This document shows positions 6,733 through 32,437 of a DNA stretch of 64,000 nt, one piece after another. Each line of letters begins with the position of its first letter. Position 1 is the stretch's first letter. Below the pieces are notes generated by a model, which worked only from the letters and a program-made list of their open reading frames with translations, had not been told where the DNA came from and searched no databases. Made by a program: the position numbers and the translations under genes. Origin of the DNA: a virus; the IMG/VR virus record IMGVR_UViG_3300035088_000013, positions 1 to 64,000 of that record, one strand, 5' to 3'.

Positions 6733-6816
6733 GGGGCCTCCTTGGGGTGGGGTGGGGGCTCCAGCCCCCCCACTCACACCTCAAGTAAACATGATCTCCG
6801 TCGTGATGTCAACAGG
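6733..6816 (-). promoter_or_regulatory. repeated element, copy 2
   Basis: CCTGTTGACA-15-TGTTTACTT...GTGAGTGGGGGGGCTGGAGCCCCCAC...AAGGAGG on minus strand. Confidence 0.9.
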
Positions 6817-6958
6817 TTCTCAGTCGGTGATGCTGGCGATCCAGTCGTTGACCAGCTCGGCCGGTGAGCCAGCCGGTCCGCAGCCCGAAGATCCTGCCGG
6901 GCGCGAGGGGGTGCAGGTGGACGGTCAGGGCACGGCGGTCGGTCGTGGGGTCGGTCAT
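6809..6958 (-). CDS. 49 aa peptide (cassette 3); stop lies in the TTGACA of copy 2
   Basis: ATG after AAGGAG; ends TGT-TGA within the next element. Confidence 0.55.
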   Translation of the reverse strand: MTDPTTDRRALTVHLHPLAPGRIFGLRTGWLTGRAGQRLDRQHHRLRTC

Positions 6959-7044
6959 GGTAGGGCTCCTTCGTCGGGGTGGGGGCTCCAGCCCCCCACT
7001 CACACATCCCAAGTAAACGCTATCTCCGTCGCGATGTCAACAGG
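6959..7044 (-). promoter_or_regulatory. repeated element, copy 3
   Basis: CCTGTTGACA-15-CGTTTACTT...GTGAGTGGGGGGCTGGAGCCCCCAC...AAGGAG. Confidence 0.88.
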
Positions 7045-8078: not shown

Positions 8079-8273
8079 TTAGCCACGCCCCTTGCGCCAT
8101 AGGCTGATCGATGTGTTCAACGCCTGAGCGAGAAGTTCGATCTCATCCCCGCGGGTGAGGTCGTGGTCGCGGCCGATGTCGGCGAGGGCCTGGCCGAGGG
8201 CGCGGCGGGCGGGCTCGAGGCGGATTTGGCGACCGGCGCGGGGCATGGGGCCGTCGTGGGCGTAGGTGGTCAC
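8079..8273 (-). CDS. small hypothetical protein
   Basis: GTGA-coupled to upstream gene. Confidence 0.55.
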   Translation of the reverse strand: MTTYAHDGPMPRAGRQIRLEPARRALGQALADIGRDHDLTRGDEIELLAQALNTSISLWRKGRG

Positions 8274-9070
8274 CGGTAGGCGACCCGGTCGCCTTGGCCG
8301 TGGGCGTCGCCGACGCCCCACACGAACGGCAGGACCGCCGCGCCGGGCACGTCGAGTTGCAGGCCGCCGATGATGATCGTGTAGTCGGTCTTGTTGCGGG
8401 CGATGTACTGGAGCCAGCCGTGGTGCTCGGCGGTGTGCAGGGCGTGCATGTTCCGCTCCCCGGCGAGGTCGTGGGCGACCTCCGGGATCGGCAAAGGCTC
8501 CGGGGATACCGATTCCCGGAAGGTGATCTGGTCGGGGCGGATCGTGTTCGGCAGCAGGAACCGCAGGTCCTCCCAGCGTTGCTGCGCGGCGGGGTCGCCG
8601 CACATGCCGTCGATCTGGTCGGCGAAGTAGTAGCGGCGGTGCCGGGCGTAGAACAAGGCACGGAGGCGGCCCGCGCGGGTGTGCGCGTTGACGGTGGGTT
8701 TGCTCATGTCGAGCAACTCCGACACCTTCGGCCGGTCGTAGAGCCGGGGCAGGCGGCCGATCCGGTCGAGGACCTGCCAGGCGTTACGGCCGAACGCCTG
8801 GCCGACGGTCCACGCGAGGGGTTCGTCGCGGCGGACCTCGATACCGCCGGGGATGCGCAGCACGGTGTCGCGGTTGAGGACGCGGACCTGCCCGGTGTTC
8901 AGGCGCACGACGTAGCGGGAGGCGACGGGGTCTCCGGCGAGGTAGTTGTACCAGCCGACGTCTTCGCCGATGCGTAGCATCCGCTGGCGTTCCCAGGATC
9001 GGGCGGGGTCGTCCGGCCGGAGGGTGAGTAGTTGTGTGGCGTTGGCGGGGGGGTGGATCGTGGTCGTCAC
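8270..9070 (-). CDS. DNA-binding protein with MerR/excisionase-like HTH
   Basis: RPKVSELLDMSKPTVNAHTRAGRLRA...RRYY pattern; GGAG RBS. Confidence 0.65.
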   Translation of the reverse strand: MTTTIHPPANATQLLTLRPDDPARSWERQRMLRIGEDVGWYNYLAGDPVASRYVVRLNTGQVRVLNRDTVLRIPGGIEVRRDEPLAWTVGQAFGRNAWQVLDRIGRLPRLYDRPKVSELLDMSKPTVNAHTRAGRLRALFYARHRRYYFADQIDGMCGDPAAQQRWEDLRFLLPNTIRPDQITFRESVSPEPLPIPEVAHDLAGERNMHALHTAEHHGWLQYIARNKTDYTIIIGGLQLDVPGAAVLPFVWGVGDAHGQGDRVAYR

Positions 9071-9750: not shown

Positions 9751-10815
9751 TCATGCGACGGCGGTGAGGACACGGGCCGGGGTGCGGGCACCGGAGGCGA
9801 TCAGCCGGGCCAGCTCCCGGCCACGAGGACCGGGCACGTCACCCGCGGGCACCACCGGCTCCGGATCCACCACGGCCAAGGTCTCCGACCGGCACCTCCC
9901 GCACGTCCCTGACGGCTCCGAGGGGTGCCTACGGCACCGTTCCCGGTCCGGGTCGAGGTAGGCGATGGGTCCACGCACCCACGACGGCTCCGGGGCGCTG
10001 ACGGCCATCGTCGGCGGCCACCAGCTGATGAACCGGCGGGGGGAGCCGGTCTGGCCGTACGCGCCGGTGGCGGCGGCCCGGAGCACCTGGACGATCTCGT
10101 CGACCGCCCTACCCCGCCCGAGCAGGTCCAGCATCACGTGTTCGGTTGTCGGGGTGTCCCAACCCCCGGCCGCGGCCAGCTCGGCCGCCAGAGCCACCAG
10201 CGCGGGCGTCCGCCGGGGGTCGCCGTCGACCTCGAGGGCCGGTTGCGGTTCGGGTGCGGGTTCGGTCCCCCCCGGTTGCGGCGTGACCGGAGCGTGGGGG
10301 GTGGGGGGGGTTGGTTCTTTGGGTGGTTCAAGAACGGTTAGGCGGACGTCCACGTCCCCCCGGTCGGACGCCGACGTCCCCCCGGTTATGACGTCCACGT
10401 CCGCCCGGACGTCCACGTCCCCCCGATTTCCGGCGGCGACCGGGCGGACGTCCACGTCCCCCCGGTTCTGGGCCGGGGCCGGTTTGGCGGGGCGGCCGCT
10501 CTTGCCGGGGCGGGGCCGGGGCTCCCGTTTGAGGTGGGTGGCCAGGTTGTAGACCACGGGACGGCGGTCCGGCGGGATGTGCAGGACCATGCGCTGGTCG
10601 CCGGGCTCGATGAGTTTCAGGGCCTCGAGTTCCTCGAGGTCGCGGCGGACCGAGCGTTCGTTCTTGCGGGTGTACCAGGCGAGGGTTACCTGTGTGGGGA
10701 ACGCGCCCCGGCCGTCGTGGTCGGCGTGGTTCGCCAGGCCCATCAACGTCGCGACGAGGTGCTTGGGGAGGTCCGGGCAGTCCTCCAGTACCCACGCGAT
10801 CGCCTGGACGCTCAC
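9751..10815 (-). CDS. replication initiator-like protein with N-terminal winged HTH
   Basis: SVQAIAWV...LMGLANHAD..GRGAFPTQVTLA...RSVRRDLEELE, typical of actinophage replisome organisers; C-terminal CxxH/CxxC. Confidence 0.75.
   Translation of the reverse strand: MSVQAIAWVLEDCPDLPKHLVATLMGLANHADHDGRGAFPTQVTLAWYTRKNERSVRRDLEELEALKLIEPGDQRMVLHIPPDRRPVVYNLATHLKREPRPRPGKSGRPAKPAPAQNRGDVDVRPVAAGNRGDVDVRADVDVITGGTSASDRGDVDVRLTVLEPPKEPTPPTPHAPVTPQPGGTEPAPEPQPALEVDGDPRRTPALVALAAELAAAGGWDTPTTEHVMLDLLGRGRAVDEIVQVLRAAATGAYGQTGSPRRFISWWPPTMAVSAPEPSWVRGPIAYLDPDRERCRRHPSEPSGTCGRCRSETLAVVDPEPVVPAGDVPGPRGRELARLIASGARTPARVLTAVA
10341..10465. repeat. iteron-like repeats within the initiator gene (candidate ori)
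   Basis: several GGACGTCCACGTCCCCC copies (encoding RGDVDVR). Confidence 0.65.
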
Positions 10816-16458: not shown

Positions 16459-16526
16459 CCTGTTGACATCACGCGGGAAGTGGTGTTTACTTGTCTTGTA
16501 AGCGAGGGAACGAGGGAGGCACCGAG
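16459..16526 (+). promoter_or_regulatory. repeated element, copy 4 (no hairpin)
   Basis: CCTGTTGACA-15-TGTTTACTTGTCTTGTAAGCG...GGGAGG. Confidence 0.85.
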
Positions 16527-16844
16527 ATGATCTACTACCGGACCGCTAAGGGAAGCCACAAGCACACGAACTACTCCTGCGCGAACCTGCGTCGCCAGAT
16601 CCAAACCGGCCCGGTCACCGAGATCCCCGCGAACGAGGTCACGGAATGGACCCCCTGCGAGCACTGCTGCCCCACCGGCGAGGTCGCGGAAGCGGCGGCG
16701 AAGGCGGCGGCGAAGACCGCGGCGATGTGCGCGAACGTCGGGGTCGTCAAGCCCCGGCACATCGAGTCGGAGTGCCGGTCCTGCGGCAAGCGGGGCAAGG
16801 TCGACCGGCGGACCGGCAAGCTGCGGGCGCACAAGGCGGCGTGA
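16527..16844 (+). CDS. small Cys-rich basic protein
   Basis: ATG after element; CEHCC, CRSC. Confidence 0.8.
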   Translation: MIYYRTAKGSHKHTNYSCANLRRQIQTGPVTEIPANEVTEWTPCEHCCPTGEVAEAAAKAAAKTAAMCANVGVVKPRHIESECRSCGKRGKVDRRTGKLRAHKAA

Positions 16845-16872: not shown

Positions 16873-16960
16873 CCTGTTGACATCACGTAGGTTCTGGTGT
16901 TTACTTGTCTTGTGAGCGCGGGGGGCTGGAGCCCCCGCCCCGATCCCCCTGGGAGCCATC
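16873..16960 (+). promoter_or_regulatory. repeated element, copy 5
   Basis: full consensus. Confidence 0.9.
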
Positions 16961-17182
16961 ATGATCCAGCACCACCGCGCGAACGTGATCGTCAAGCAGA
17001 TCCGCGCGAACGGCTACGCCGACCTGGTCCTCAACGGGCAGGTCATCCGGACCGGCTTCCAAGGCTCCGGGCACGCCGAGCTGGTCATGGTGGGCGGCGG
17101 CTACTACTCGGTGCGCACCCTGGATGGTCACCGGATCGAGATCGGCAAGGGTGAGCTGATCGCGGTGCAGCACGCCGAGTGA
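16961..17182 (+). CDS. small hypothetical protein
   Basis: ATG after element. Confidence 0.8.
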   Translation: MIQHHRANVIVKQIRANGYADLVLNGQVIRTGFQGSGHAELVMVGGGYYSVRTLDGHRIEIGKGELIAVQHAE

Positions 17183-17220: not shown

Positions 17221-17305
17221 CTGTTGACGTCACGTGCGGCATGGTGTTTACTTGTCTTGTGAGCGCGGGGGGCTGGAGCCCCCGCCCGACCCGAGAGGCA
17301 ACCCG
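17220..17305 (+). promoter_or_regulatory. repeated element, copy 6
   Basis: CCTGTTGACG-15-TGTTTACTT plus hairpin plus GAGAGG. Confidence 0.9.
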
Positions 17306-17950
17306 ATGATCGAGAACCTGACCACCGCGACCCCCACCGAGATCGACACCGCGATCGCCGCCCTGCACCACTCCCTGGCGAAGGCCGACCACAAGCGGAC
17401 CTCGTCGATCGGCTACCTGCACGACATCGCCAAGACCCGCAAGTACCGGCCCTCGACCTGGACCAACCGGAAGTCCGGCTACGACTACACCGCCACCGAC
17501 GCCGAGGCGATCGCGATCCTGACCGACGCGATCGAGGCGGCCGACGCGGGTACCTACACCGGCCCGATCTCCACCTACGACCTGAAGTACGGAAGCGCCA
17601 AGAAGCACCTGGAGGCCATCCCCGCACTGGAAGCGGAGATCGCGAAGATCAAAACGGAGATCAACCGGCTCGAGGGCGAATGGTCGGCCCGGCCGTGGTC
17701 GCGGTTCTTCCTGGTCACCTCGAGCACCGGCCACATCCACTCGTCGATGGGGTGCTCGACCTGCCGGATCACCACCACCTACGGATGGCTGCCGGAGATG
17801 TCCGGCAAGAGCGAGGCGGACGCGATGGAGCACCTGGACACCATCGGCGCGGGCCGCTCGACCCTGTGCTCGGTGTGCTTCCCGGACGCCCCGGTCGGGG
17901 ACACCCGGACCAAGGTCACCAAGGCGAAGGCGGCGAAGCTGGCCGCCTGA
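17306..17950 (+). CDS. conserved actinophage hypothetical protein
   Basis: WSRFFLV..GHIHSSMGCSTC...LCSVCFPDAP. Confidence 0.85.
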   Translation: MIENLTTATPTEIDTAIAALHHSLAKADHKRTSSIGYLHDIAKTRKYRPSTWTNRKSGYDYTATDAEAIAILTDAIEAADAGTYTGPISTYDLKYGSAKKHLEAIPALEAEIAKIKTEINRLEGEWSARPWSRFFLVTSSTGHIHSSMGCSTCRITTTYGWLPEMSGKSEADAMEHLDTIGAGRSTLCSVCFPDAPVGDTRTKVTKAKAAKLAA

Positions 17951-17988: not shown

Positions 17989-18069
17989 CCTGTTGACATG
18001 ACTCGTGGTTTGATGTTTACTAATTACGGCGGGGAAGGACCCCAGCCCCCGACCCCGGAGGAGCAACCG
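17989..18069 (+). promoter_or_regulatory. repeated element, copy 7 (divergent hairpin)
   Basis: CCTGTTGACA-15-TGTTTACTAA; GGAGGAG RBS. Confidence 0.8.
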
Positions 18070-18378
18070 ATGACCGACACCACCTGCCGCCATTCTTGGG
18101 TGGCCGGGATGATGTACGTCCACGACGAAGACCTGGCGACTGTCGCCGCCGTCCGCACCGTCGAGTGCGAGCACTGCGACGTCACCGTCGGACCCGGCAC
18201 CAGCTCCCTCGAGCTGGATCACCTGCGCGGACTCGCCGGACGGGAACCCGACGTCATCGTCTCCCAGCGGGAGCACGAGTCACTGCGGGAAACCGCGCAC
18301 CTGCTGTCCACGCCCGCCAACGCGCGCCGCCTGCTCGCCGCCGTAGAACGGCTCGACGACGGAAAGGCGCAGCGGTGA
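18070..18378 (+). CDS. Zn-finger-like N-terminus fused to a YefM/Phd antitoxin C-terminal domain
   Basis: AGREPDVIVSQREHESLRETAHLLSTPANARRLLAAVERL matches the YefM C-terminal half. Confidence 0.75.
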   Translation: MTDTTCRHSWVAGMMYVHDEDLATVAAVRTVECEHCDVTVGPGTSSLELDHLRGLAGREPDVIVSQREHESLRETAHLLSTPANARRLLAAVERLDDGKAQR

Positions 18379-18566: not shown

Positions 18567-18656
18567 CCTGTTGACATCCCGTGAGTGATCGTGTTTACTT
18601 GACTTGTGAGCGCGGGGGGCTGGAGTCCCCGCCCCGACCCCGGAGAGGCAATCCCC
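18567..18656 (+). promoter_or_regulatory. repeated element, copy 8
   Basis: full consensus, hairpin with one G-U pair (GGAGTCCCC). Confidence 0.9.
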
Positions 18657-18866
18657 ATGATCAGCACCCTCGACCAGCTCCGCCACACCGCCGCCGAGAA
18701 GCGGGTGCGGATCATCGCCCGCCCGAACGAGACGTTCATCCTGCGCGACGCCCACACCGGCGACCACATCGCCACGGCCCACGGTTTCGACCAGCTCACC
18801 GAATCCCTCAACTGGGTCGACCACCCCGGCCAGGTCGACCCGGACGCGATGGGAACGGGCGCGTGA
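18657..18866 (+). CDS. small hypothetical protein
   Basis: ATG after element. Confidence 0.75.
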   Translation: MISTLDQLRHTAAEKRVRIIARPNETFILRDAHTGDHIATAHGFDQLTESLNWVDHPGQVDPDAMGTGA

Positions 18867-21962: not shown

Positions 21963-22541
21963 TCACATGCAGCACCCGCAGCACTCGCCGTCCCGGCCGC
22001 AGTCGCAGTCGATGGTGATCCACGCCGGGGCGGACCCGCACCGGGTGCACGGGACCGGGCCGGGGTCGACGCAGATCAGGTGCTCGAGGTCGCACCGGGG
22101 GCGGTCCCGCGGGTCGGTGGCCAGCTCGGCGGCGGTCCCGGGGCGGGGGTCCGCGGGGACGCAATCGGTGCAGCCGTCGACGTGCAGGTAGCCCCGGCCG
22201 TCGGGGGTGTCGGTGAGCAGCCCGCCGCATCCGCACCGGTACCGGGCGGGGGTGCGGTGGGAGGCGAGGCGGCGGGTGCGGATGGCCGCGTTCCGGGCGT
22301 TGAAGTGCAGGACCTCCCGCAGGTCGGTGGCGGCGGCCCGGCGGGCGGCCAGCAGGCTGGTGAAGGTCGCGAACAGGTGGGTGTCGGTGGCCTCGGCGTA
22401 CCAGGGGGTGCCGGGTTCCTCGGTGCGGATGAACACCCAGCCGGGTGTTTTGGCTTCCCATACCTCGAGGCGGCCGGTCCGCAGGTTCGGGTGGCGGGCG
22501 GTGATGGTCACGGGGGGGAGGGTGCGGGTGGCGGTGGTCAT
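21963..22541 (-). CDS. Cys-rich hypothetical protein
   Basis: ATG after repeat copy 9; many CxC/CxxC. Confidence 0.8.
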   Translation of the reverse strand: MTTATRTLPPVTITARHPNLRTGRLEVWEAKTPGWVFIRTEEPGTPWYAEATDTHLFATFTSLLAARRAAATDLREVLHFNARNAAIRTRRLASHRTPARYRCGCGGLLTDTPDGRGYLHVDGCTDCVPADPRPGTAAELATDPRDRPRCDLEHLICVDPGPVPCTRCGSAPAWITIDCDCGRDGECCGCCM

Positions 22542-22632
22542 GGGGTGCCTCTCTCTCGCGGTGTCGTGGCCCCGCTCCAGCCGGGAGGACGACCACATAA
22601 GTAAACCACGCCACCCCATTCATGTCAACAGG
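22542..22632 (-). promoter_or_regulatory. repeated element, copy 9 (stem arms swapped)
   Basis: CCTGTTGACA-15-GGTTTACTT; CCCGGCTGGAGCGGG hairpin; GAGAGG. Confidence 0.85.
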
Positions 22633-22659
22633 TATCGCAACACGGAGGTCCAGCCGAAA

Positions 22660-22750
22660 CCTGTTGACATCACGGTGTCGGTCGTGTTTACTTGGTTTGT
22701 GAGCGGCGGGGGGCTGGAGCCCCCGCCCCAACCCCCGAGAGGCGGCCCCC
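22660..22750 (+). promoter_or_regulatory. repeated element, copy 10
   Basis: full consensus, back-to-back with copy 9. Confidence 0.9.
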
Positions 22751-22984
22751 ATGAACACCTACACCGTGACCCTCCGCAAGGACGGCGGCCTGCGGATGCC
22801 CTACACCATGGCCGCCCCCGACACGGCAACCCTGTTCGCCGCGATCGACCCGAAGGACGAGGTCGTCTCGATCGTCCGGATCGACGACGACACCCCCGAC
22901 TACCTGCTGGACTACCTGCCGCTGAGCGTCGCGTCCCGGGTCGCCGCGAACTCCGCGTTCTACGTCGGCGACCCGAACTCCTGA
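22751..22984 (+). CDS. small hypothetical protein
   Basis: ATG after element. Confidence 0.8.
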   Translation: MNTYTVTLRKDGGLRMPYTMAAPDTATLFAAIDPKDEVVSIVRIDDDTPDYLLDYLPLSVASRVAANSAFYVGDPNS

Positions 22985-23014
22985 CCACCCCACCCCGAGA
23001 AAGCGAGCACCGCC

Positions 23015-23386
23015 ATGACGTCCCTTTTCGAGCTCCAGGTCGACCTCGAGCGCTGGGAGTTGGACCCGGCGACCATGCGGGTCGCCCAAGCGATGATCGA
23101 CGCCGCGTCCCCCGACCCCGACCAGGACCACGTAGCGGTCTACGTGGGGATCGCCCTGCCGGGCAAGCGGCGCGGTGTGTGGACCCTGGGCCAGCCCCTC
23201 GAGGTCGCTGACGGGTTCTTCCTGGCCCGTACGGACGCGGAGGTGTCCCGGGCGCGTGAGTTCGCCGACCGGGCCGCGGAGACCCAGCTCGCGGGGCGGG
23301 CGGGGACGACCTCCTATGCGGCGGTCCGGCGCGGCGGGGGATCGGTGTTCGAGGGCATCTTCGGCGTCGAGGTGGCCGGGCCGTGA
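23015..23386 (+). CDS. hypothetical protein
   Basis: 123 aa ORF within cassette. Confidence 0.7.
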   Translation: MTSLFELQVDLERWELDPATMRVAQAMIDAASPDPDQDHVAVYVGIALPGKRRGVWTLGQPLEVADGFFLARTDAEVSRAREFADRAAETQLAGRAGTTSYAAVRRGGGSVFEGIFGVEVAGP

Positions 23387-23574
23387 TCGGCCGGATGCTG
23401 TTGCGCGGGCCGCGATATCCGCTGTTGTGGGCGGTCGCGGTGATCGTGCTGCTGCTGGTGGTGCTGCCCGTCTGGGTGGCGGTGCTGCTGGCGGTGGTGA
23501 TGGTCGTGGCGGTGGTGGGCCTGGTCCGGCGGGGGGTTCGGCGGGTCCGGAGGCCCAAACAGAAACCCTGTTGA
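23383..23574 (+). CDS. small membrane protein; stop in the TTGACA of copy 11
   Basis: long hydrophobic stretch; GTGA-coupled. Confidence 0.65.
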   Translation: MIGRMLLRGPRYPLLWAVAVIVLLLVVLPVWVAVLLAVVMVVAVVGLVRRGVRRVRRPKQKPC

Positions 23575-23657
23575 CATCCTGATGCCGGTCGTGTTTACTT
23601 GTCTTGTGAGCGCGGGGGGCTGGAGCCCCCGCCCCGACCCCCGAGAGGCGGCCCCCG
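23567..23657 (+). promoter_or_regulatory. repeated element, copy 11
   Basis: full consensus. Confidence 0.9.
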
Positions 23658-23861
23658 ATGAGCATCTACGAGTACCGCGACGGCGTGAAGATGGCCAGCG
23701 ACGAGCTGGTGGAGTTCTGGAACAGCCGTGACCTGTGCTGGGCCTGCGACCAGATCCACACCCCGCAGCACACCACGGACGGCTTCCACCACTACCGGTG
23801 CCCGCGCAACAGCACCCACCCGTTCGACGAGCTGACCTGGAAGCGGCCCGTCACCGCCTGA
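23658..23861 (+). CDS. small Zn-ribbon protein
   Basis: CWAC...CP; ATG after element. Confidence 0.8.
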   Translation: MSIYEYRDGVKMASDELVEFWNSRDLCWACDQIHTPQHTTDGFHHYRCPRNSTHPFDELTWKRPVTA

Positions 23862-23884
23862 ACCCCCGAGAGGACCCCCGACCC

Positions 23885-24124
23885 ATGACGCCTGAGACGT
23901 TCGTGATCCTCGGATCGATGCAATGGGGCTACGGCCCCACCCTGGACGCCGCGAAGCGGCGGTGGCGCACGCAAGGCCGCGGGAAACTCTCCGACGGCTA
24001 CGGCGTCTACACCTTCGGCGAGGGGTCGACCTTCGAGGGGGTCGACAACCTCGGCCGGGTGCACTGGTCCGGCGAGCGGCCCGCGTTCACCGAGGTCCCG
24101 GCCCGGACCCGGAAAGCCTGTTGA
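23885..24124 (+). CDS. small hypothetical protein; stop in the TTGACA of copy 12
   Basis: GAGAGG RBS; MTPETFVILG... Confidence 0.7.
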   Translation: MTPETFVILGSMQWGYGPTLDAAKRRWRTQGRGKLSDGYGVYTFGEGSTFEGVDNLGRVHWSGERPAFTEVPARTRKAC

Positions 24125-24201
24125 CATCGCACGGGTGATCGTGTTTACTTGGTTTGTGAGCGGGGGGCTGGAGCCCCCGCCCCAACCCCGAGGAGGCCCC
24201 C
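24117..24201 (+). promoter_or_regulatory. repeated element, copy 12
   Basis: full consensus. Confidence 0.9.
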
Positions 24202-24423
24202 ATGACCACCATCACCCGGTTCCCGTGCCCCCACCCGGTGCAGGACGCCGACGAGGACGGCATCTACACCACCGACTGCGAGGCCCCGGCCGCGACCTAC
24301 GCCGACGGCACCGGCTGGGCGTGCGTGAACGGCCACCACGACGCCGACGACTCCTACCGGGTCGAGGACCCGGCCGAGAACTTCCGCGAGCGGTACATCG
24401 AGCGGATGTACGCCACCGCGTGA
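24202..24423 (+). CDS. small acidic Cys/His protein
   Basis: ATG after element. Confidence 0.8.
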   Translation: MTTITRFPCPHPVQDADEDGIYTTDCEAPAATYADGTGWACVNGHHDADDSYRVEDPAENFRERYIERMYATA

Positions 24424-24479
24424 CCCCCCCCGGGCCGGGGGAGGCGACCCCCCGGCCCCCCGAGAGAGGCAGCACACCC

Positions 24480-25226
24480 ATGAGCACCCACGCGATCATC
24501 GGCACCCCCACCCCCGGCGGCGGATTCCGGGGCCGCTACGTCCACTACGACGGCGCGCCGCACGGCGTCGGCACAACCCTCGCGGCGATCATCGCTCGCG
24601 ACGGCCTCGAGCACGCCCTGCGGGTTCTCACCGAGGACCACACCTCCTGGGCAATGCTGGACGAGGACCTGCCCGAGCACCCCGACGACATCCCGTTCAC
24701 CGTGCGCCACAACCGGCAGGTCGCCGGATACGGGATGGCGCACCACCCGGACGAGCCGACCGCTGCCGAGTGGTACTCCGACACCGGCACCACCGAGGCC
24801 GGGGCGGAGTGGGCGTACGCGGCCACCCCCGACGGCATCCAGGTGTGGCGGCGGCCGATCGGCGGGAGCTGGGGGCGGCGGCCCGACCTGGACATCACCT
24901 ACCCGGTCCGGGAGACCGTGTGGTGCGGCGCGGCGCACGGCGGCCCCGGGAAGCCGCACTTCGACCGGCCGGACTGCGTCGGCCCGCACTACACCGACCA
25001 GCGGACCCGTGAGCGGCTGAACGCCGAGCACATCCGGGCCGGGCGGCCGGACACCCCCGGCCACGGCGGCGGTGGACGTGCGGAGCTGCTGGACCTGCTG
25101 GCCGGGCGGATCGAGCTGGCCTACGCGAAATCCCGGACCGGGCATGTCGGCGAGCACGCACGGGAGATAGCGGAACTGATCCTGGACACCCCCGGCATCA
25201 CCATCACGAAGGAGCAGCAGGCATGA
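24480..25226 (+). CDS. conserved phage protein (YxHxDGxP family)
   Basis: MSTHAIIG...RYVHYDGAPHGVG...EWAY. Confidence 0.75.
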   Translation: MSTHAIIGTPTPGGGFRGRYVHYDGAPHGVGTTLAAIIARDGLEHALRVLTEDHTSWAMLDEDLPEHPDDIPFTVRHNRQVAGYGMAHHPDEPTAAEWYSDTGTTEAGAEWAYAATPDGIQVWRRPIGGSWGRRPDLDITYPVRETVWCGAAHGGPGKPHFDRPDCVGPHYTDQRTRERLNAEHIRAGRPDTPGHGGGGRAELLDLLAGRIELAYAKSRTGHVGEHAREIAELILDTPGITITKEQQA

Positions 25227-25522
25227 GTCTCGACGGGTTCTGGGCGGCGATCGACCACCAGCTCGAGCAGCTGCGGACGGCCACGACGGTCGACGAGGTG
25301 ATCGGCATCCTCGGCGGCAAGCACCCCGACTCGTCCGGGGATGCGTTCTTCGCCGGGGGCGGCGGCGACGGCTCGGTCTACGAGTCGCTGCGCGAGGCGG
25401 GCTGGGAGGTGGCCTGGTTCGACGCCGGGTACTACTGGGCGATGCGGACCCCCGACGGCCGGGACGGCATCACGTACGTCGAGGGCGACATCATGCGGGG
25501 GGTGCGCAAGCCGGTGTTCTGA
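25223..25522 (+). CDS. hypothetical protein
   Basis: AAGGAG RBS, ATGA-coupled. Confidence 0.75.
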   Translation: MSLDGFWAAIDHQLEQLRTATTVDEVIGILGGKHPDSSGDAFFAGGGGDGSVYESLREAGWEVAWFDAGYYWAMRTPDGRDGITYVEGDIMRGVRKPVF

Positions 25523-25801
25523 GCCCGGGGTCCCCGGGGGCGTCCCGAACAGGCACCCCCGGGGGTAGGACATACGCAGCAGTGAGCATAACCGGCCGGT
25601 TCGCCCGGCCGGGGCGGGACACGCGCGGCGGGGCCTCCAGAACCCCGCTGGGCGGCCCGGCGGCCGGACGGGTACCCACGGGGTCCCCGCTGGCCGTGAC
25701 GGGCCAGGGCGGGCGTCGTAGCGAGCCCCCCGGGTGGAGTTGCCTCTCCTCCCCGGGGCGCGGCCGGTACGACGCCCGCCTTGTCGTATCCACCACCCAA
25801 G

Positions 25802-25892
25802 CCTGTTGACATCACGCGGTGCATCGTGTTTACTCAGTTTGTGAGCGGCGGAGGGGCTGGAGCCCCCGCCCGAACCCGAAGGGGAGGCCGAC
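25802..25892 (+). promoter_or_regulatory. repeated element, copy 13
   Basis: CCTGTTGACA-15-TGTTTACTC plus hairpin plus GGGGAGG. Confidence 0.9.
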
Positions 25893-26162
25893 ATGTTCCG
25901 CACCGAACGTGAGCGGGAGTGCTACCGGGCGTTGCACACCGGCGGAGAGGCGGCGCTGGAGGCGCTGGTCGGGGACGTGATCTCCACCGATCTGATCAAC
26001 CGCTGGGCGGACGCGGGGATGCTCCGGGTGAAGAACCTCGACCCCGGACGCGCACCGAAGCCCCTGGTCCTGATGAACGCGGACGAGCGTGCCGCGTGGA
26101 ACGCCCACGTCATCGCGAACACCGGCTACACGATCAAGACGTTCGCGAAGTACGCCCACTGA
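25893..26162 (+). CDS. small hypothetical protein
   Basis: ATG after element. Confidence 0.8.
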   Translation: MFRTERERECYRALHTGGEAALEALVGDVISTDLINRWADAGMLRVKNLDPGRAPKPLVLMNADERAAWNAHVIANTGYTIKTFAKYAH

Positions 26163-26163
26163 T

Positions 26164-26250
26164 CCTGTTGACATGACGCAGGAGATGGTGTTTACTTTGT
26201 TTGTGAGCGCGGGGGGCTGGAGCCCCCGCCCCGCGAGAGAGGCCACCGAC
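26164..26250 (+). promoter_or_regulatory. repeated element, copy 14
   Basis: full consensus, starts right after the upstream stop. Confidence 0.9.
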
Positions 26251-27153
26251 ATGATGACCACCGCGAACACCACCGCCACCGCCGGGACCTGCCTGGCCTG
26301 CGGATTCGTCAACGCCACCACCGACCCCGCCACCGTCACCGCCTGCACCGGATGCGGGGAGCGGGTCGTGCTGACCTGGGTCCGGGGCGTCACCAACAAG
26401 CGGGTCCCCTGCGACGACCGGTGCCAATACGCCATCGGCTCCTACTGCTCCTGCGCCTGCGGCGGCCGCAACCACCGGGCCGGATACATCCACGTCGACC
26501 TGGTCCCCGCCTACATCCGGGAGCGCGACGCGAAACGGCACGCCGACCGGCTGGCCCGGGCCGCCAGCAAGGCCGCCGCGACCCGGGCCGCGCACGCCAC
26601 CGCGATGGCCGAGCTGCTGGCCGAGCACCCCACCCTGGAGGCCCTGCTGGGCGACCGGTACGACGGCGCGTACGGCTTCATGGCCGACATGCGGGCCGCG
26701 CTGGAGCGGGGCGACATGACCCCCCGGCAGATCGAGGCCGCGACCGACGCCGTCGAGCGCGACGCCGCCCGGGACCGGGCACGCGACGAGCGGGACGCGG
26801 CGCGGGCCGCGCTGGCCGCCGCGGGGGTCAAGGTCACCGAGGGCCGCCGGGTCCTCGAGGGCGAGATCGTCCGGGTGTCCAGCAAGGAGAGCTACTTCGG
26901 CTACCAGGAGCGGACCGTGTGGCAGATCATGGTCAAGCTGGCCGACGGGTGCACGGTGATGGGCACCCTGCCCGAGGGGATCCGGCCCACCTCCTACACC
27001 GGCGGCGAGGCCACCGACGAGGGCTCCTGGGCGTGGCACATGGCCCAGCTGGTCGGCAAGACCGTCCGGTTCACCGGCACCGTGAAGCCCTCCGACCGGG
27101 ACGAGACCTTCGGGTTCTACACCCGGCCCACCAAGGCCGCACTGGTCGACTGA
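26251..27153 (+). CDS. Cys-rich N-terminus plus C-terminal OB-fold-like nucleic-acid-binding protein
   Basis: CDDRC...CSCACGGRNH; C-terminal VRFTGTVK...FGFYTRPTKA. Confidence 0.7.
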   Translation: MMTTANTTATAGTCLACGFVNATTDPATVTACTGCGERVVLTWVRGVTNKRVPCDDRCQYAIGSYCSCACGGRNHRAGYIHVDLVPAYIRERDAKRHADRLARAASKAAATRAAHATAMAELLAEHPTLEALLGDRYDGAYGFMADMRAALERGDMTPRQIEAATDAVERDAARDRARDERDAARAALAAAGVKVTEGRRVLEGEIVRVSSKESYFGYQERTVWQIMVKLADGCTVMGTLPEGIRPTSYTGGEATDEGSWAWHMAQLVGKTVRFTGTVKPSDRDETFGFYTRPTKAALVD

Positions 27154-27214
27154 GACTGGGCGCGGCGGGACGCCCGGGGCTGACCGGCCCCGGGCGGACC
27201 CGGTATCGTCTCCA

Positions 27215-27372
27215 GGCACAAGCACGGGCGCGGTCCACCCCGGCGGGCGTTGGTCACATGGGCCTCTCCGCCCGCCGTACCCCGGACCCCCGTGCTTGAG
27301 CGGCCTGCAAGTCGTCTCCAGCGCGCGCAGGTCGTGACTGAAAGCCCCCCGTGATCACCGGGGGGCTTTCGG
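27215..27372 (+). ncRNA. candidate structured small RNA
   Basis: TATCGT -10 at 27204; rod-like stem 27219-27298, second stem 27300-27335, terminator 27340-27370. Confidence 0.45.
27340..27370. terminator. intrinsic (possibly bidirectional) terminator
   Basis: GAAAGCCCCCC-gtgatcacc-GGGGGGCTTTC. Confidence 0.8.
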
Positions 27373-27430
27373 CGTTCACCGGTCCGGCTCGGGGTTACTC
27401 ATCCTTCCTTCCACGTGTAAGATGATCAGT

Positions 27431-27712
27431 ATGGCAAAGGACAAGGTCACCGTCACACTGGATCCCGAAATCATCGCCTACACCGACGCGGACGCGGCCA
27501 GCGAAGGCCTGAACCGCTCCGAATACGTCGAGCGGACCCTCCGCGACGTCCACAACCGGCTACGCGCCCGCCGCGCGGTGGAGGGGACCGCCGCACTGCT
27601 GGCCGATCCGGACTTCGCCGCCCAGCTGGCCGCCGCCCGCGCATGGACCGCCCCGTTCCGCGAAGCCCGCAGCCAGCACCTCAACGAGTTGAACGCCACG
27701 GCCGCCGCGTGA
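27431..27712 (+). CDS. RHH antitoxin (MazE-position), probably leaderless
   Basis: KVTVTLDPEII...GLNRSEYVE; TAAGAT -10 seven nt upstream. Confidence 0.8.
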   Translation: MAKDKVTVTLDPEIIAYTDADAASEGLNRSEYVERTLRDVHNRLRARRAVEGTAALLADPDFAAQLAAARAWTAPFREARSQHLNELNATAAA

Positions 27713-28008
27713 AACACGCCGAGATCCACTCGCCGGACCGGCAGACCAACGCCAAGTTCGTGGTCCTCACCAGCGACAGCTGGAACAGCTCCGGCCAAGA
27801 CCCGGTGATCGCCCATATCATCCGCAGCCACGGCGCGGGCAACGACCTCGTGATCGAGCTGAGCGAATTCGACCCGGTCAGCGGAGTCGTGCTCACGCCC
27901 TGGCCGGAGAGCATCCCGGCCAACGAACCTACCGAGCTGCTCGGCATGCTCACCGGCGCGACCATGGCCCGCCTCAAAGACGCGCTGCGCCTGCTGTACG
28001 ACCTGTGA
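27709..28008 (+). CDS. PemK/MazF-like toxin
   Basis: FVVLTSDSWN...VIAHI...GMLTGATMARLKDALRLLYDL; GTGA-coupled to RHH gene. Confidence 0.7.
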   Translation: MKHAEIHSPDRQTNAKFVVLTSDSWNSSGQDPVIAHIIRSHGAGNDLVIELSEFDPVSGVVLTPWPESIPANEPTELLGMLTGATMARLKDALRLLYDL

Positions 28009-28106
28009 AAACAGCCTCACCCGGGCGGTCTCCGAATCCGGCCCCAGCGTTCCGTTCGCCCCCCTTCCGGCCCTGGCCGCCGAGGGGGGCGATTTCTTTT
28101 CCCCTA

Positions 28107-28195
28107 CCTGTTGACATCCTGGCTGTGTCCGTGTTTACTTAGTTTATGAGCGGCGGGGGGGCTGGAGCCCCCCGCCCCGCCCGAGAGGAGCCCCC
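28107..28195 (+). promoter_or_regulatory. repeated element, copy 15
   Basis: full consensus. Confidence 0.9.
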
Positions 28196-28429
28196 ATGAC
28201 CACCACGATCGACACCCCCCGCGGCCCGATCTCCGTCGGCGCGCGGATCGGCTACAAGCCCTTCCTGGGCGGCCTGCGCATGGTCACCGTGACCCTGGTC
28301 GACCCCGACATCAGGAACGGCCGTCCCGGGTTCGAGGGCGTCGTCGACGGCGTCACCGACCCCGACGACGCCGGGGTGTGGGGTTACGCCGACCAGATCA
28401 TCCGGATCTACGACCGGGGGCTGGCGTGA
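28196..28429 (+). CDS. small SH3-like hypothetical protein
   Basis: ATG after element; NGRPGF...WGYADQI. Confidence 0.8.
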   Translation: MTTTIDTPRGPISVGARIGYKPFLGGLRMVTVTLVDPDIRNGRPGFEGVVDGVTDPDDAGVWGYADQIIRIYDRGLA

Positions 28430-28701
28430 TGAGCGCGCTCACCGTGCGGGAGCTGCTGGACGGCCTCGCGGACGGCCGGTTCACCCTCGAGCAGGTGGCG
28501 GCGGACTTCGCCGCCCGGCCGTGGCCGCCGTTGCCGCCGCGGCCGACTCTGGCCCAGGCGTACGGGGTGAACGATGACGAGCTGGTCGGCGACCCGGACT
28601 CGTGGAAGCAGGTGCAGACCGATCCGCGGTTGACCGGCGTCCAGTACGAGGTCCTGTTCCACGCGGCCGGGCCGCAGACCCGACAGGAGGGTCCGGCGTG
28701 A
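28429..28701 (+). CDS. paralog of the gene downstream of the zeta toxin (53237-53494)
   Basis: shared WPPLPPRPTLAQxYGVxDDE...DPxSWKQVxxDPR...QY..LFxAAGPQTR. Confidence 0.85.
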   Translation: MSALTVRELLDGLADGRFTLEQVAADFAARPWPPLPPRPTLAQAYGVNDDELVGDPDSWKQVQTDPRLTGVQYEVLFHAAGPQTRQEGPA

Positions 28702-28967
28702 GCGAGATCTACCGGCCGGGGGAGGTGGTCGCGGTGAGCGTCGACGGCGGGGTGCGGCCGATGTACGTGCACCGGGTGGTGCAGCTGCTGGTCGTGGGGA
28801 CGTCGCCGGAGGGCGGCCGGACGTGCAAGGTGGGGGAGCGGGAGGTGGTCGCGGTCGGGCTCCCGGCGGTCTCCGAGGCGGTCGCGCGGGCGTCGGGGTT
28901 CGACGTGCAGCAGGTGGCCGAGAGCATCGCGGAGGACTACGCCGATTGGGTCGCGGACCAAAACTAG
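28698..28967 (+). CDS. hypothetical protein
   Basis: AGGAGG RBS, GTGA-coupled. Confidence 0.7.
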   Translation: MSEIYRPGEVVAVSVDGGVRPMYVHRVVQLLVVGTSPEGGRTCKVGEREVVAVGLPAVSEAVARASGFDVQQVAESIAEDYADWVADQN

Positions 28968-28971
28968 CCCG

Positions 28972-29068
28972 CCTGTTGACATCACGTGCCAGATCGTGTT
29001 TACTTGGTTTGTGAGCGGCGGGGGGCTGGAGCCCCCGCCCCCGACCCCGACCCCCCGAGGAGGCCCCC
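28972..29068 (+). promoter_or_regulatory. repeated element, copy 16
   Basis: full consensus. Confidence 0.9.
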
Positions 29069-29251
29069 ATGTACGACGTCCACCCCGCCTACGCCGACGC
29101 GAACGGCACCTACGCCTGGTGCGACCGGCACGACCTGACCACCGTGGTCGCCGAGCACACCGCGGTCGGCTACGCGGGCGGCACCGTCTGGTCCCTGGAG
29201 CTGGCCTGCGGGTGCACCGAGACCAGCGAGACCATCGGGGACATCCGGTGA
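29069..29251 (+). CDS. small Cys/His protein
   Basis: ATG after element. Confidence 0.75.
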   Translation: MYDVHPAYADANGTYAWCDRHDLTTVVAEHTAVGYAGGTVWSLELACGCTETSETIGDIR

Positions 29252-29688
29252 CCGGCCACCGGTGGCGGCCGGTGCCGCTGTGGCCGTCCGCGCGGCGGTG
29301 CTCGGCGTGCCGCCTGGTCGCGGCCCGGTTCGGCGGCGAGAAGCCGGGATCGTTCACCGCGTGGATGTCCGGCGGGGTCCTGTTGGGCACCAGCCAGCGG
29401 GACACCGAGCCGGGGTGCCCGACCCCGTACGCCCCGAACGCGGGATCCGGCCCGAAGCGGGGCTGGCAGGCCGTCTACGGCGACGCCTCGAGGCAGGCGG
29501 TCCCCACCCCCGCGCAGGTCCGCGTCCTCGCCCAGGGCCTCGCCAGCGGCGACACGGTCCTCGAGGGCGGGCACCGTCCGGCGACCGTGGCCCGGATGCG
29601 CACGTACGGGTGGCTCGACAACCGGTACCGGGTCACCCCGGCCGGGGCGGCGGCGTTCGGGCGGCGCGGCGGCCGGGTGCCCGCCTAG
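29248..29688 (+). CDS. hypothetical protein
   Basis: GTGA-coupled. Confidence 0.55.
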   Translation: MTGHRWRPVPLWPSARRCSACRLVAARFGGEKPGSFTAWMSGGVLLGTSQRDTEPGCPTPYAPNAGSGPKRGWQAVYGDASRQAVPTPAQVRVLAQGLASGDTVLEGGHRPATVARMRTYGWLDNRYRVTPAGAAAFGRRGGRVPA

Positions 29689-29963
29689 GCCGTGGGTGGC
29701 GGGGCGGGCGGGACGGCGATCCGGTTCACCTCGAGGACGAACGTCTGCGCGTCTACGTTGATGGCGAGGGTGTTGCCGGTGAGCCGGTCGACCGCGGCCA
29801 CGTGCTCCCCGCCGTCGATCAGGGCGGCGAGGTAGGACACGAACCTTTCCACGCCCATCGGGGGCGGCTCGTGGACGGCCGCTTCGCGGCGCAGCCCGCA
29901 GAACCGGCCGCCGACGTCGTACATGCACGTTCCGGCCGCGCTGATCAGGAATGGGTGGCCCAT
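29685..29963 (-). CDS. small hypothetical protein, probably leaderless
   Basis: TACACT -10 seven nt before ATG on minus strand. Confidence 0.55.
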   Translation of the reverse strand: MGHPFLISAAGTCMYDVGGRFCGLRREAAVHEPPPMGVERFVSYLAALIDGGEHVAAVDRLTGNTLAINVDAQTFVLEVNRIAVPPAPPPTA

Positions 29964-30000
29964 CCCGGGGAGTGTACGGGGCCGGGAAACCCCCGCATCG

Positions 30001-30086
30001 CCTGTTGACATCGCGTGCGGGATGGTGTTTACTTGGTTTGTGAGCGGGGGGCTGGAGCCCCCGCCCCGAGCGCCCGGGAGGCCCCC
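30001..30086 (+). promoter_or_regulatory. repeated element, copy 17
   Basis: full consensus. Confidence 0.9.
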
Positions 30087-30446
30087 ATGTTCACCACCTA
30101 CGAGATCCTCACCGCCCGCATCGGCGCGACGTTCGACGGCCTGATCGTCGCGGACCGGTCCTGGCCCGCGGACGCGCCGAAGCCCGGCCCGGAGCTGGAG
30201 CCCGGCTCGGACGCCTGGTACGAGGCCATCGGCCCGGCGGGCACGGTGTACCTGACCTCCGACGGCCGCGGAGCGAACACCTACGGGTGGTGCGAGTGTG
30301 GCGGACAGACCGGCCAGGTGTGGTTCGACTCGCCCGGCATCGGCGAGGGCCAGGTGTGGGTGCGCTACGAGCGGTACACGCCCGCGGGGCGGGAGGCGCA
30401 CGGGTGGGTGCACCAGGGCTGCCGGATGCTGCTGCAGGTCGGCTGA
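30087..30446 (+). CDS. hypothetical protein
   Basis: ATG after element. Confidence 0.8.
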   Translation: MFTTYEILTARIGATFDGLIVADRSWPADAPKPGPELEPGSDAWYEAIGPAGTVYLTSDGRGANTYGWCECGGQTGQVWFDSPGIGEGQVWVRYERYTPAGREAHGWVHQGCRMLLQVG

Positions 30447-30499: not shown

Positions 30500-30582
30500 C
30501 CTGTTGACATGACGCGGTTCATCGTGTTTACTTGACTTGTGCGGGGGGCTGGAGCCCCCGCCCCGCCCCAAGGAGGCCCCCG
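30500..30582 (+). promoter_or_regulatory. repeated element, copy 18
   Basis: full consensus. Confidence 0.9.
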
Positions 30583-30900
30583 ATGGCGACGATGATCCGC
30601 TGCGGCACCTGCATCAACCGGCACGCGACCGTCGCGGATGTTCGCGAGTGCGCCGCGGAGTTCTACGACTACCAGGCCCAAAGCGAGGGTGAGATCTACG
30701 CCGAAGCGGTCATGTCCTGGGTGATGGGCGGCGGGAACCCCGAGGATGCCTCCCTCTACGCGGGAGTGATCGCCCGCGGCGGCGTCTGGAACGGCGGCAT
30801 CGCACCCCCCGGCGACGACGACGGCGACGACGAGCTGTGCGAGCACGGCTTGTCCGCCCGGCTGTGCGTCGGCCCCTCCCACTACCCCCTGGACATGTGA
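30583..30900 (+). CDS. small Zn-binding protein
   Basis: IRCGTC..RH....VREC; CEHG...C...HY. Confidence 0.8.
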   Translation: MATMIRCGTCINRHATVADVRECAAEFYDYQAQSEGEIYAEAVMSWVMGGGNPEDASLYAGVIARGGVWNGGIAPPGDDDGDDELCEHGLSARLCVGPSHYPLDM

Positions 30901-31750: not shown

Positions 31751-31971
31751 AGCGGCGGGGGTGGCTGGAGCGGCTGAGAGCCGATCTGCCGGGCTGGTAC
31801 GTGTGGGCGACCGGGTACGGGAGGCAGTGGCATGCGGTGCCGCTGGCGGGCGGCTGGCGGGTCGGCCGGGCTCCCCGGGGGGCTCCGGGGCGGATCGACG
31901 CGCCGTCGCCGATCGTGTTGCGCAGTCTGGTGCGTCAGAAAGAACGAGACAACCCCACTCCACCCTGTTGA
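31747..31971 (+). CDS. hypothetical protein; stop in the TTGACA of copy 19
   Basis: GTGA-coupled; LRADLPGWYVW...WHA motif. Confidence 0.6.
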   Translation: MKRRGWLERLRADLPGWYVWATGYGRQWHAVPLAGGWRVGRAPRGAPGRIDAPSPIVLRSLVRQKERDNPTPPC

Positions 31972-32050
31972 CATCCGAACGGGTGACGTGTTTACTTGGT
32001 TTGTGAGCGGGGGGCTGGAGCCCCCGCCCCAACCCGGAGAGGCAACCACC
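31964..32050 (+). promoter_or_regulatory. repeated element, copy 19
   Basis: full consensus. Confidence 0.9.
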
Positions 32051-32437
32051 ATGAGCCGTGAACTCACCCCCTGGGCCGCGACCGCGAAGGCCACCCGCAC
32101 CGCGATCAAGGCCCGCCGTGACGAGCTGGGCATCCCGGCCACCGCCACGATCAAGGTCACCTCCGACTCCTTCGCCGGGGGCGCGTCGGTGGACGTGTGG
32201 ATCGGCGACGCCGACTCATGGGCGTGGCGGACCGCGACCGACCTCGATCGCGCCCGGAACACCTGGCTGACCCCGGGGGAGCGGGTCCTCACCGCACAGG
32301 CCAAGGCCACGGGGGACGCGATCGAGGCCGTCCTCCGGGAGGTTCGCACGGCCGGTTACATCTGGGGATCGGTCACCTACGAGGGCACCGTCATCGGATC
32401 GCTGGCCCGTGCGGGCTGGCAGCCGGGCCAGGACTGA
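32051..32437 (+). CDS. hypothetical protein
   Basis: ATG after element; IKVTSDSFAGGASVDV. Confidence 0.8.
   Translation: MSRELTPWAATAKATRTAIKARRDELGIPATATIKVTSDSFAGGASVDVWIGDADSWAWRTATDLDRARNTWLTPGERVLTAQAKATGDAIEAVLREVRTAGYIWGSVTYEGTVIGSLARAGWQPGQD

Follow-up and report, generated by a model that had tools for sequence, protein, structure and literature searches.

A candidate 5'-leader RNA hairpin with a retained GCUGGAG loop in a repeated early expression cassette of a predicted temperate actinophage

The DNA analyzed here, called the window in the following, comprises bases 1-64000 of IMG/VR virus record IMGVR_UViG_3300035088_000013, an 86,302-bp linear record with a CheckV completeness of 95%, which originates from a rhizosphere metagenome and has a GC content of 69%. 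At 22600-22692, two promoter-like cassettes lie back to back, with 35 base pairs (bp) between their -35 hexamers. Cassette 9 (22539-22628, minus strand) is composed of TTGACA at 22628-22623, GTTTACT at 22606-22600 and a hairpin at 22593-22563 with its loop at 22581-22575, followed by a Shine-Dalgarno (SD) motif and then the ATG at 22541 of gene 21963-22541. Divergent from it, cassette 10 (22664-22753, plus strand) is of the canonical type, its 8-bp hairpin being located at 22705-22727 and its loop at 22713-22719. The pair constitutes a large inverted repeat (ATGTCAACAGG...CCTGTTGACAT) resembling a divergent genetic-switch region, and the leftward gene behind cassette 9 encodes a 192-amino-acid (aa), Cys-rich protein without a family match. 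Both hairpins belong to a repeated cassette family whose common feature, a G/C stem carrying the loop GCTGGAG (GCUGGAG as RNA), is the subject of this study.

In total, 19 matches to the pattern TTGACA-N16-GTTTACT (at most one mismatch) were found in the 86,302-bp record, 16 in forward and 3 in reverse orientation, and no match was obtained in the record with a reversed control pattern. All 19 cassettes are located within 765-32,000, and none was detected in the 32-86 kilobase (kb) region. Aligned, the copies yield the motif CTGTTGAC(A/G)T-N15-GTTTACT, in which CTGTTGAC, the T two bases further and GTTTACT are invariant; copy 6 (17224-17308, plus strand; loop 17272-17278) features G at the variable site, its -35 hexamer reading TTGACG. 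The 16-nucleotide (nt) gap between TTGACA and GTTTACT is fixed in length and variable in sequence, and TTTACT stands at a fixed 17-nt gap from the -35 hexamer in 19 of 19 copies. Within each cassette, the -35/TTTACT motif is followed by a short leader, a C-rich tract, the SD motif and ATG, the G/C hairpin, where present, being placed between leader and C-rich tract. An SD-like motif and the ATG of an open reading frame (ORF) of 49-300 aa were observed downstream on the same strand for every copy (19/19), and most of the proteins encoded there match no Pfam or PHROG function. Blocks headed by cassettes comprise zero to eight called genes, the zero referring to copy 3, although a 49-aa ORF (6809-6958) sits behind that cassette. 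A separate strong GC hairpin occurs just upstream of the -35 hexamer in at least five cassettes, one of them with a T-run. Furthermore, a leader segment, (U)GUGAGCG, is conserved 6-7 nt after GTTTACT.

The metagenome pattern scan returned six stretches, four of which are true relatives of the cassettes (L182-L185), located on two contigs from one sample. The (U)GUGAGCG segment is exact in three of these four, L185 reading TGGAGCG. That the cassette acts as a promoter and that the hairpin lies at the 5' end of the transcript is deduced from the perfect -35 hexamer, the constant spacing, the shared orientation of motif and gene in all 19 cases and the conservation of (U)GUGAGCG; transcription would probably start at this leader segment.

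A leader hairpin was identified at the common site in 18 of the 19 cassettes, and three stem versions can be distinguished: the canonical one, that of copy 7 and that of copy 9. Stems of the form G5-7...C5-6, or the reverse arrangement seen in copy 9, are present in 17/19 copies. The stem begins about 12-16 nt after GTTTACT, and the loop lies 26-37 nt upstream of ATG, with the separate SD motif in between. In RNAfold and RNAalifold predictions, the preferred structure is a stem of 7-9 bp with GCUGGAG as its 7-nt loop; a near-isoenergetic alternative fold features a UGGA tetraloop and a bulged G.

Pairing was evaluated for 21 sequences, namely 17 window copies and the four metagenomic relatives, assuming a 7-bp stem and a 7-nt loop. 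In this set, 94.6% of stem cells are paired, compared to 86.3% in shuffles (none of 500 shuffles reached 94.6%), and only 43-69% of cells pair when the 3' arm is slid to other registers. Moreover, RNAalifold independently predicts the same helix. Among the individual changes, a compensatory exchange of C-G for U-A characterizes the adjacent copies 2 (6730-6812, minus strand; loop 6759-6765; one extra unpaired G) and 3 (6956-7040, minus strand; loop 6986-6992), being clean in the latter. The changed outer pair had already been recognized in an earlier reading of the DNA made from the sequence alone (hereafter the sequence-only reading), and the arms GTGGGGG...CCCCCAC were recovered here from both copies (6812 and 7040, minus strand). 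The two copies probably reflect a single event, and L182, the orthologue of copy 3, keeps C-G. In copy 15 (28111-28198, plus strand; loop 28161-28167), a G inserted in the 5' arm is matched by a C inserted in the 3' arm, which extends the stem to 9 bp; a T-run terminator lies upstream of this cassette.

Copy 9 differs most extensively from the other copies with this loop. Its sequence, GUCGU-CC-UCCCG-GCUGGAG-CGGGG-CC-ACGAC, forms an inner stem (UCCCG/CGGGG), a 2x2 internal loop and an outer stem (GUCGU/ACGAC). Four G-C pairs are flipped to C-G, the fifth became U·G and an outer 5-bp helix was added. Compared to the consensus, copy 9 shows 10 changes in the 14 positions of the stem, 5 in the 9 of the leader, 6 in the 9 of the tail and none in the seven loop positions. 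The swapped and extended arms around a retained loop, as described in the sequence-only reading, were thus fully recovered. L183 represents the orthologue of copy 9, as deduced from a similar promoter spacer and a downstream gene of 83% nucleotide identity, and carries a canonical stem; therefore, the arm swap of copy 9 is derived and the loop was kept. Simple inversion was rejected as the origin of copy 9, as its outcome would be a flipped loop between unaltered arms. Among 20,000 random genomic windows, 1.17% contain at least five consecutive pairs around a 7-nt loop, and about 1.2% of random windows reach the constrained energy of copy 9 (-14.2 kcal/mol). Of 31 GCTGGAG sites outside cassettes, none is flanked by four or more consecutive pairs.

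Across the family, the loop GCUGGAG is present in 17 of 18 hairpins and GGA in the loop of all 18. Retention of GCTGGAG in 17 of 19 copies agrees with the earlier count, and the two exceptions could be assigned. Copy 4 (16463-16529, plus strand) possesses the promoter-like motif and SD without a hairpin, and copy 7 (17993-18072, plus strand) carries an unrelated hairpin with the core GGGG-AAGGA-CCCC at the same site (18028-18047; GCGGGG-AAGGA-CCCC-A-GC; -11.7 kcal/mol). The loop GGAG and the AAGGA of copy 7 are both parts of the SD consensus. Within the 16 canonical copies, differences were counted in 0 of 112 loop cells, compared to 13 of 224 stem cells. GCTGGAG occurs 43 times in the window, whereas 8.9 occurrences are expected (standard deviation 3.0; 0/100 shuffles reach 43); its enrichment outside the cassettes was dismissed as a signal, reflecting mostly CTG-GAG (Leu-Glu) codon usage. 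Taken together, the pairing and the loop pattern favour a selected single-strand structure with a sequence-specific apex. To this extent the sequence-only reading, which had proposed a selected structure with a specific loop, is supported by pairing that persists through changes and by the loop kept in copy 9; the binding protein type it had suggested is treated below.

Based on these results, a 5'-leader RNA hairpin acting both as stabiliser and as common handle within a repeated early expression cassette of a temperate actinophage is proposed as the somewhat favoured interpretation. The active form would be the sense-strand RNA, in which the hairpin, located a few nucleotides behind the 5' end, would shield each short early mRNA from 5'-end-dependent decay and would provide every swapped-in gene with one uniform translation-start context. 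The invariant loop with its SD core GGAG would represent the common handle, by which one factor could treat about 17 units alike. This factor may be the 30S subunit, leading to STAB-SD-like stabilisation, or a phage or host RNA-binding protein. The repeat family with its fixed architecture, pairing that survives changes and a loop that survives a stem swap are direct results, whereas promoter function, the position of the start, an effect exerted by RNA and the two roles of stabiliser and handle are inferred. A more ambitious version, in which the GCUGGAG hairpin constitutes a regulon-wide RNA operator read by one factor or the 30S subunit as an early post-transcriptional switch, with the SAS elements of Cluster K mycobacteriophages as short-stem relatives, is regarded as speculative and unlikely.

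Several observations weigh against the proposed leader function. Independent covariation events number two or three only, and copy 9 by itself accounts for nearly every double-sided change. Single-sided changes comprise three G·U pairs (copy 8, L182, L184) versus two A·C pairs (copy 13, L185); therefore, no RNA-specific wobble bias is apparent. In this context, the change in copy 8 (18571-18659, plus strand; loop 18619-18625), which reads GGAGTCCCC and has a G·U closing pair (GGAGUCCCC), is real, as noted before, and the weight formerly given to it as a G-U-compatible substitution does not hold. Shuffle z-scores are unremarkable, amounting to -1.86 for copy 10 (-19.6 kcal/mol), -0.04 for copy 8 and +1.31 for copy 9, i.e., the hairpins fold no better than shuffled sequence of equal GC-rich composition, and whole-leader minimum-energy folds vary between copies. 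Regarding the loop, a hand count of the 16 canonical copies yielded six clear substitutions only, all of which would fall in the stem by chance with a probability of about 0.09, and the stem count of 13, like the computed value of 0.005 for the loop-versus-stem contrast, is inflated by indel register shifts. The copies being paralogues, gene conversion may also homogenise them, a process by which the loop would be conserved along with all other parts. As to the promoter, the second hexamer (TTTACT, or TTACTT after TG) lacks A at position 2 and is a non-canonical -10, sigma-70-type promoters needing A at this position; a strict sigma-70 scan of 16-33 kb returned no promoters. Finally, none of the predicted phage proteins could be identified as a candidate for binding the hairpin, and the list of small basic, Arg-rich proteins contained no convincing N-like candidate.

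The remaining cassettes, all on the plus strand, conform to the canonical hairpin type with small deviations. Cassette 1 (765-850; loop 813-819) lies furthest to the left. In the region adjoining the hairpin-less copy 4, cassette 5 (16877-16963; loop 16925-16931) features a GC hairpin just upstream of its -35 hexamer. To the right of the divergent pair, cassette 11 (23571-23660; loop 23619-23625) and cassette 12 (24121-24204; loop 24167-24173) follow, the orthologue of the latter in L184 being the G·U variant mentioned above. A G-to-A change in the 5' arm of cassette 13 (25806-25895; loop 25856-25862) leads to an A·C mismatch or a bulge. Cassettes 14 (26168-26253; loop 26216-26222), 16 (28976-29071; loop 29025-29031) and 17 (30005-30089; loop 30051-30057) complete the series together with cassette 18 (30504-30585; loop 30548-30554), which is preceded by a strong GC hairpin, and cassette 19 (31968-32053; loop 32014-32020), which heads a block including an 830-aa DUF3846 protein. 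Several leaders contain three to four C-runs between loop and ATG, e.g., C5-G-C4-AA-C5-N9-C5 in cassette 10 (22720-22750); the G-runs opposite on the template strand could form a quadruplex, the pattern having been noted by eye.

Beyond these copies, the hairpin covariance model recovered its 17 training copies and one weak extra match at record positions 78074-78107 (21.3 bits, rough E 0.008). This match was set aside as chance or a remnant, as it has a different loop, no promoter motif and a position between leftward genes, though it shares a leader-like start (GTGAGCGGGG). Rfam searches resulted in no match at the gathering score for the whole window and none at E up to 1 for 22500-24300. 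Neither megablast of 22000-30000 against sequenced phages nor blastn searches of phages and of plasmids with a single cassette returned a match. In IMG/VR, a promoter-motif scan yielded 40 stretches with single chance matches only, a scan for the hairpin 16-mer yielded 15 stretches, all unrelated, and a scan for the -10 motif plus loop yielded, among the matches listed, single chance matches only. The copy-9-type 15-mer appeared in at least 118 IMG/VR stretches as a common coding word, with two loose matches, neither of them a cassette, among the matches listed. No IMG/VR locus matched the 830-aa protein. In species genomes, the composite pattern gave no match and the promoter pattern 53 single matches, none with the hairpin. 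In four soil/root DNA sequencing runs, only short contigs were encountered, which derive from this phage or an almost identical one and carry no hairpin variant. The 11-mer CCTGTTGACAT from the -35 region was also encountered in Agromyces/Microbacterium genomes (L187, L234, L239), where it forms half of a near-perfect palindrome directly upstream of a gene start; these palindromes probably represent unrelated host operators and were not accepted as relatives. The pattern by which the four metagenomic relatives were found required GCTGGAGC, and therefore they cannot count towards loop conservation.

The main competing explanation, which is considered possible but unlikely, assigns the function to double-stranded DNA: the inverted repeat GCGGGGG-N7-CCCCCGC, the centre of which is asymmetric, would serve as an operator bound by a phage repressor or another DNA-binding regulator that silences or blocks all cassettes in the lysogen, analogous to the stoperators of Cluster A mycobacteriophages and the conserved inverted repeats of phiC31. 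Its appeal lies in the predicted temperate lifestyle (integrase, ParA-like protein, toxin-antitoxin pairs), in the need of 19 near-identical promoters for a common off-switch, and in the location of the site just downstream of the presumed start, the classic roadblock position, with an orientation fixed relative to transcription. The missing G·U bias among single-sided changes also fits this explanation, and copy 9, with its different arms and its leftward unit divergent from copy 10, could be regulated differently. However, the symmetric changes (copies 2/3, 9 and 15) preserve pairing and not half-site sequence, and copy 7 replaces the repeat by a hairpin of unrelated sequence. Half-site centres would moreover be about 14 bp apart, a spacing that is unusual for a dimeric helix-turn-helix protein, and no repressor was identified, the only matches being weak ones to HTH_17 and HTH_36, far from the cassettes; helix-turn-helix proteins of the phage are encoded at 8270-8980 and 9751-10815.

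Rather improbable is a second alternative, by which the hairpin is a passenger of a DNA-level module spread by duplication and gene conversion, and would be at most a recombination or shuffling site or a leftover attenuator, as proposed for the PeSL cassettes of T4-type phages; loop identity would then result from recent common descent. Cassettes are indeed 60-86% identical over 80-94 nt, flanks included, and precede small ORFans. Furthermore, each of the four relative loci (650 bp) shows a change of neighbouring genes or of orientation coinciding with its cassette: the downstream gene is different in L182 and the upstream gene in L184, L183 is inverted relative to its neighbour, and L185 features a cassette and a gene that are missing beside the VapB homologue of the window. 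For PeSLs, crossovers were mapped in or beside the stem-loop (PMC2839356). Descent alone is nevertheless insufficient to explain copy 9, in which the loop was kept while leader, stem and tail differ, or retention of a hairpin in three stem versions. An attenuator role is without support, given that a T-run is missing, and shuffling and a leader function are mutually compatible.

Least probable, and to be regarded as highly doubtful, is the idea that a host or phage protein of the CsrA/RsmA family binds the GGA loop and thereby represses or activates translation; the sequence-only reading had named this target type as an example. GGA is found in 18/18 hairpin loops, with a second GGA in many SD motifs, and CsrA domains were detected in 51 genomes of a 301-genome sample from the phylum to which one Streptomyces genome belongs; a general statement that Actinobacteria altogether are devoid of CsrA would therefore be too broad. 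No CsrA domain was found, however, in that one Streptomyces genome, in six-frame translations of the phage at E up to 1, or by Pfam comparison among 121 predicted proteins (a set leaving out ORF 63238-64431, which extends across the window end). Moreover, the canonical loop reads CUGGA and does not correspond to the CsrA consensus A(N)GGA. This part of the earlier proposal is without support here. Two further identities were rejected. An intrinsic terminator is incompatible with the sequences following the stem, CCCCGCCCC in sense and CTCACAAACC in antisense direction, as no T/U-run is present on either strand; five terminator-like sites were predicted in 16-33 kb, none of which corresponds to a cassette hairpin. 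An integron attC-like site was discarded, since the conserved boxes are direct and not inverted repeats, separated by a fixed 16-nt gap as in a promoter.

Among described systems, the leader hairpin proposed here is closest to the PeSL cassette, followed by the SAS of Cluster K phages as second analogue. With no match to sequenced phages, plasmids or Rfam, the element appears to be a variant of a kind of phage regulatory cassette already described as PeSL. In PMC2839356, PeSLs are described as combinations of strong promoter, polyG/polyC stem-loop, SD motif and ORFan ATG located in variable regions, and inter-cassette recombination is stated to shuffle genes; PMC4122927 is a further record listed for these cassettes. 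Likewise, the present family consists of a repeated intergenic unit of about 100 bp, in which a host-type promoter motif and a polyG-then-polyC stem-loop precede the SD motif and start codon of a small ORFan; it is concentrated in the variable non-structural region, and its positions coincide with differences in gene content between relatives. In contrast to PeSLs, in which the stem-loop is mostly placed between -35 and -10 or over the -10, the stem-loop here resides downstream of the -10, in the leader. It has no terminator tail, so the terminator/attenuator feature of the PeSL stem-loop does not recur, and it exhibits an invariant loop kept through a stem swap. In addition, the -10 is non-canonical, and the phage is predicted to be a temperate siphovirus-like actinophage and not a T4-type myovirus.

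SAS is the 13-mer GGGATAGGAGCCC, whose authors noted the GGG-N7-CCC symmetry and had no explanation for the conserved outer bases (PMC3203893); its function was still called untested in 2025 (PMC12699233). SAS/ESAS are also described there as occurring 11-19 times per genome, with a uniform orientation, within the non-structural half and in intergenic gaps larger than 50 bp, a pattern that resembles the 19 cassettes found here, which are co-oriented with their genes and all located within 0.7-32 kb. Of the 13 positions of GGGATAGGAGCCC, 10 are shared by the hairpin core GGGGCTGGAGCCC, and GGAG occupies the 3' side of N7 in both. The core nevertheless has three departures (positions 4-6), whereas the SAS definition in these sources allows two, and SAS is reported there to lie 3-7 bp from the start codon and to be itself the ribosome site, whereas the loop described here is situated 26-37 nt upstream and accompanied by a separate SD. 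Stems of 7-9 bp, and not 3 bp, and the link to a promoter-like motif are further differences from SAS. ESAS is a pair of 17-bp repeats of different sequence.

More general parallels exist to 5'-terminal mRNA stabilisers and to phage RNA signals. The ompA leader hairpin and the Bacillus cryIIIA STAB-SD are stabilisers of the former type, established for single genes with mapped 5' ends and measured half-lives. They share with the cassettes a stable hairpin and/or an SD-like sequence near the (here predicted) 5' end that is not used for initiation, and differ in that the present element is a 17-copy family known from sequence alone. Phage RNA signals on early transcripts include the lambda nut boxB, recognized by N protein, and the GGAG target of T4 RegB. 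Here the likeness concerns a phage-specific signal, namely a loop or tetranucleotide of specific sequence, that early transcripts share immediately behind their promoters; the difference is that the loop is not a GNRA-like pentaloop, and no N-like or RegB-like protein was identified.

Genome typing, based on rough gene calls and Pfam and PHROG scans, suggests a temperate, siphovirus-like phage of high-GC bacteria (actinophage). Structural genes run leftward from about 41 kb and include those for the terminase, the portal (SPP1-type), the coat protein (P22-type), the tail tube and the tape measure protein of 1770 aa. An integrase of the tyrosine type is encoded at about 81.5 kb, and a ParA-like ATPase, RecT and two VapBC pairs were also found. 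No sigma factor was detected by these scans among the predicted phage proteins. The region of 16-37 kb represents a rightward block of small genes, mostly without known function. The phage proteins have distant relatives in actinobacterial phages and plasmids, among others from Corynebacterium, Propionibacterium, Streptomyces, Mycobacterium and Arthrobacter. Homologues of the early gene 17306-17950 are present in several phages, e.g., Kratio and Aminay, that are assigned to Cluster K in PMC12699233.

Further features of the record were observed outside the cassettes. The gene 26251-27153 is followed by a 268-nt gap that contains a strong GC hairpin at 27330-27380 (AAAGCCCCCCG...CGGGGGGCUUU) with A/T-rich flanks on both sides, which looks like a bidirectional terminator; the next two genes, at 27422-28008, have no cassette. 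The ParA-like gene is located at 3987-4574. Three 31-nt direct repeats at 10360-10470, spaced by 39-41 nt and 74-87% identical, are located within the HTH_36 gene 9751-10815 (minus strand) or at its 5' part; they look iteron-like and may mark the replication or partition site of a plasmid-like prophage. Within the tape measure gene (1770 aa), five tandem 135-nt (45-aa) repeats were noticed at 46757-47365. Repeats with a period of 153-162 nt (39726-40211, 41450-41585 and 57394-57726) are shared by a second locus (about 57.4 kb) and a 1048-aa protein, for which a glycine-rich domain and a weak carbohydrate-binding match were found. Among the virion genes, 53508-54467 and 62252-63022 encode a zeta-toxin/AAA-like domain protein and an ADP-ribosyltransferase-domain protein, respectively. 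At record positions 72621-73984, near the terminase genes, a QueD-like 6-pyruvoyl-tetrahydropterin synthase adjoins a TET-associated glycosyltransferase-family protein, a neighbourhood that hints at DNA base hypermodification.

Arrays of small early ORFs behind identical cassettes are common in phages, and the role of the hairpin in them is rarely known. If it were only a stabiliser or a passenger, the family described here would amount to an ordinary PeSL-like array. The three stem versions around one retained loop nevertheless offer a natural experiment on a leader signal that would combine structure and sequence, and the cassette could serve as a compact expression part for high-GC hosts. 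Should the handle function proposed for the GCUGGAG loop prove true, it would mean a post-transcriptional early-gene switch in actinophages, and under the operator version of this proposal the function found here would also explain the SAS of Cluster K phages.

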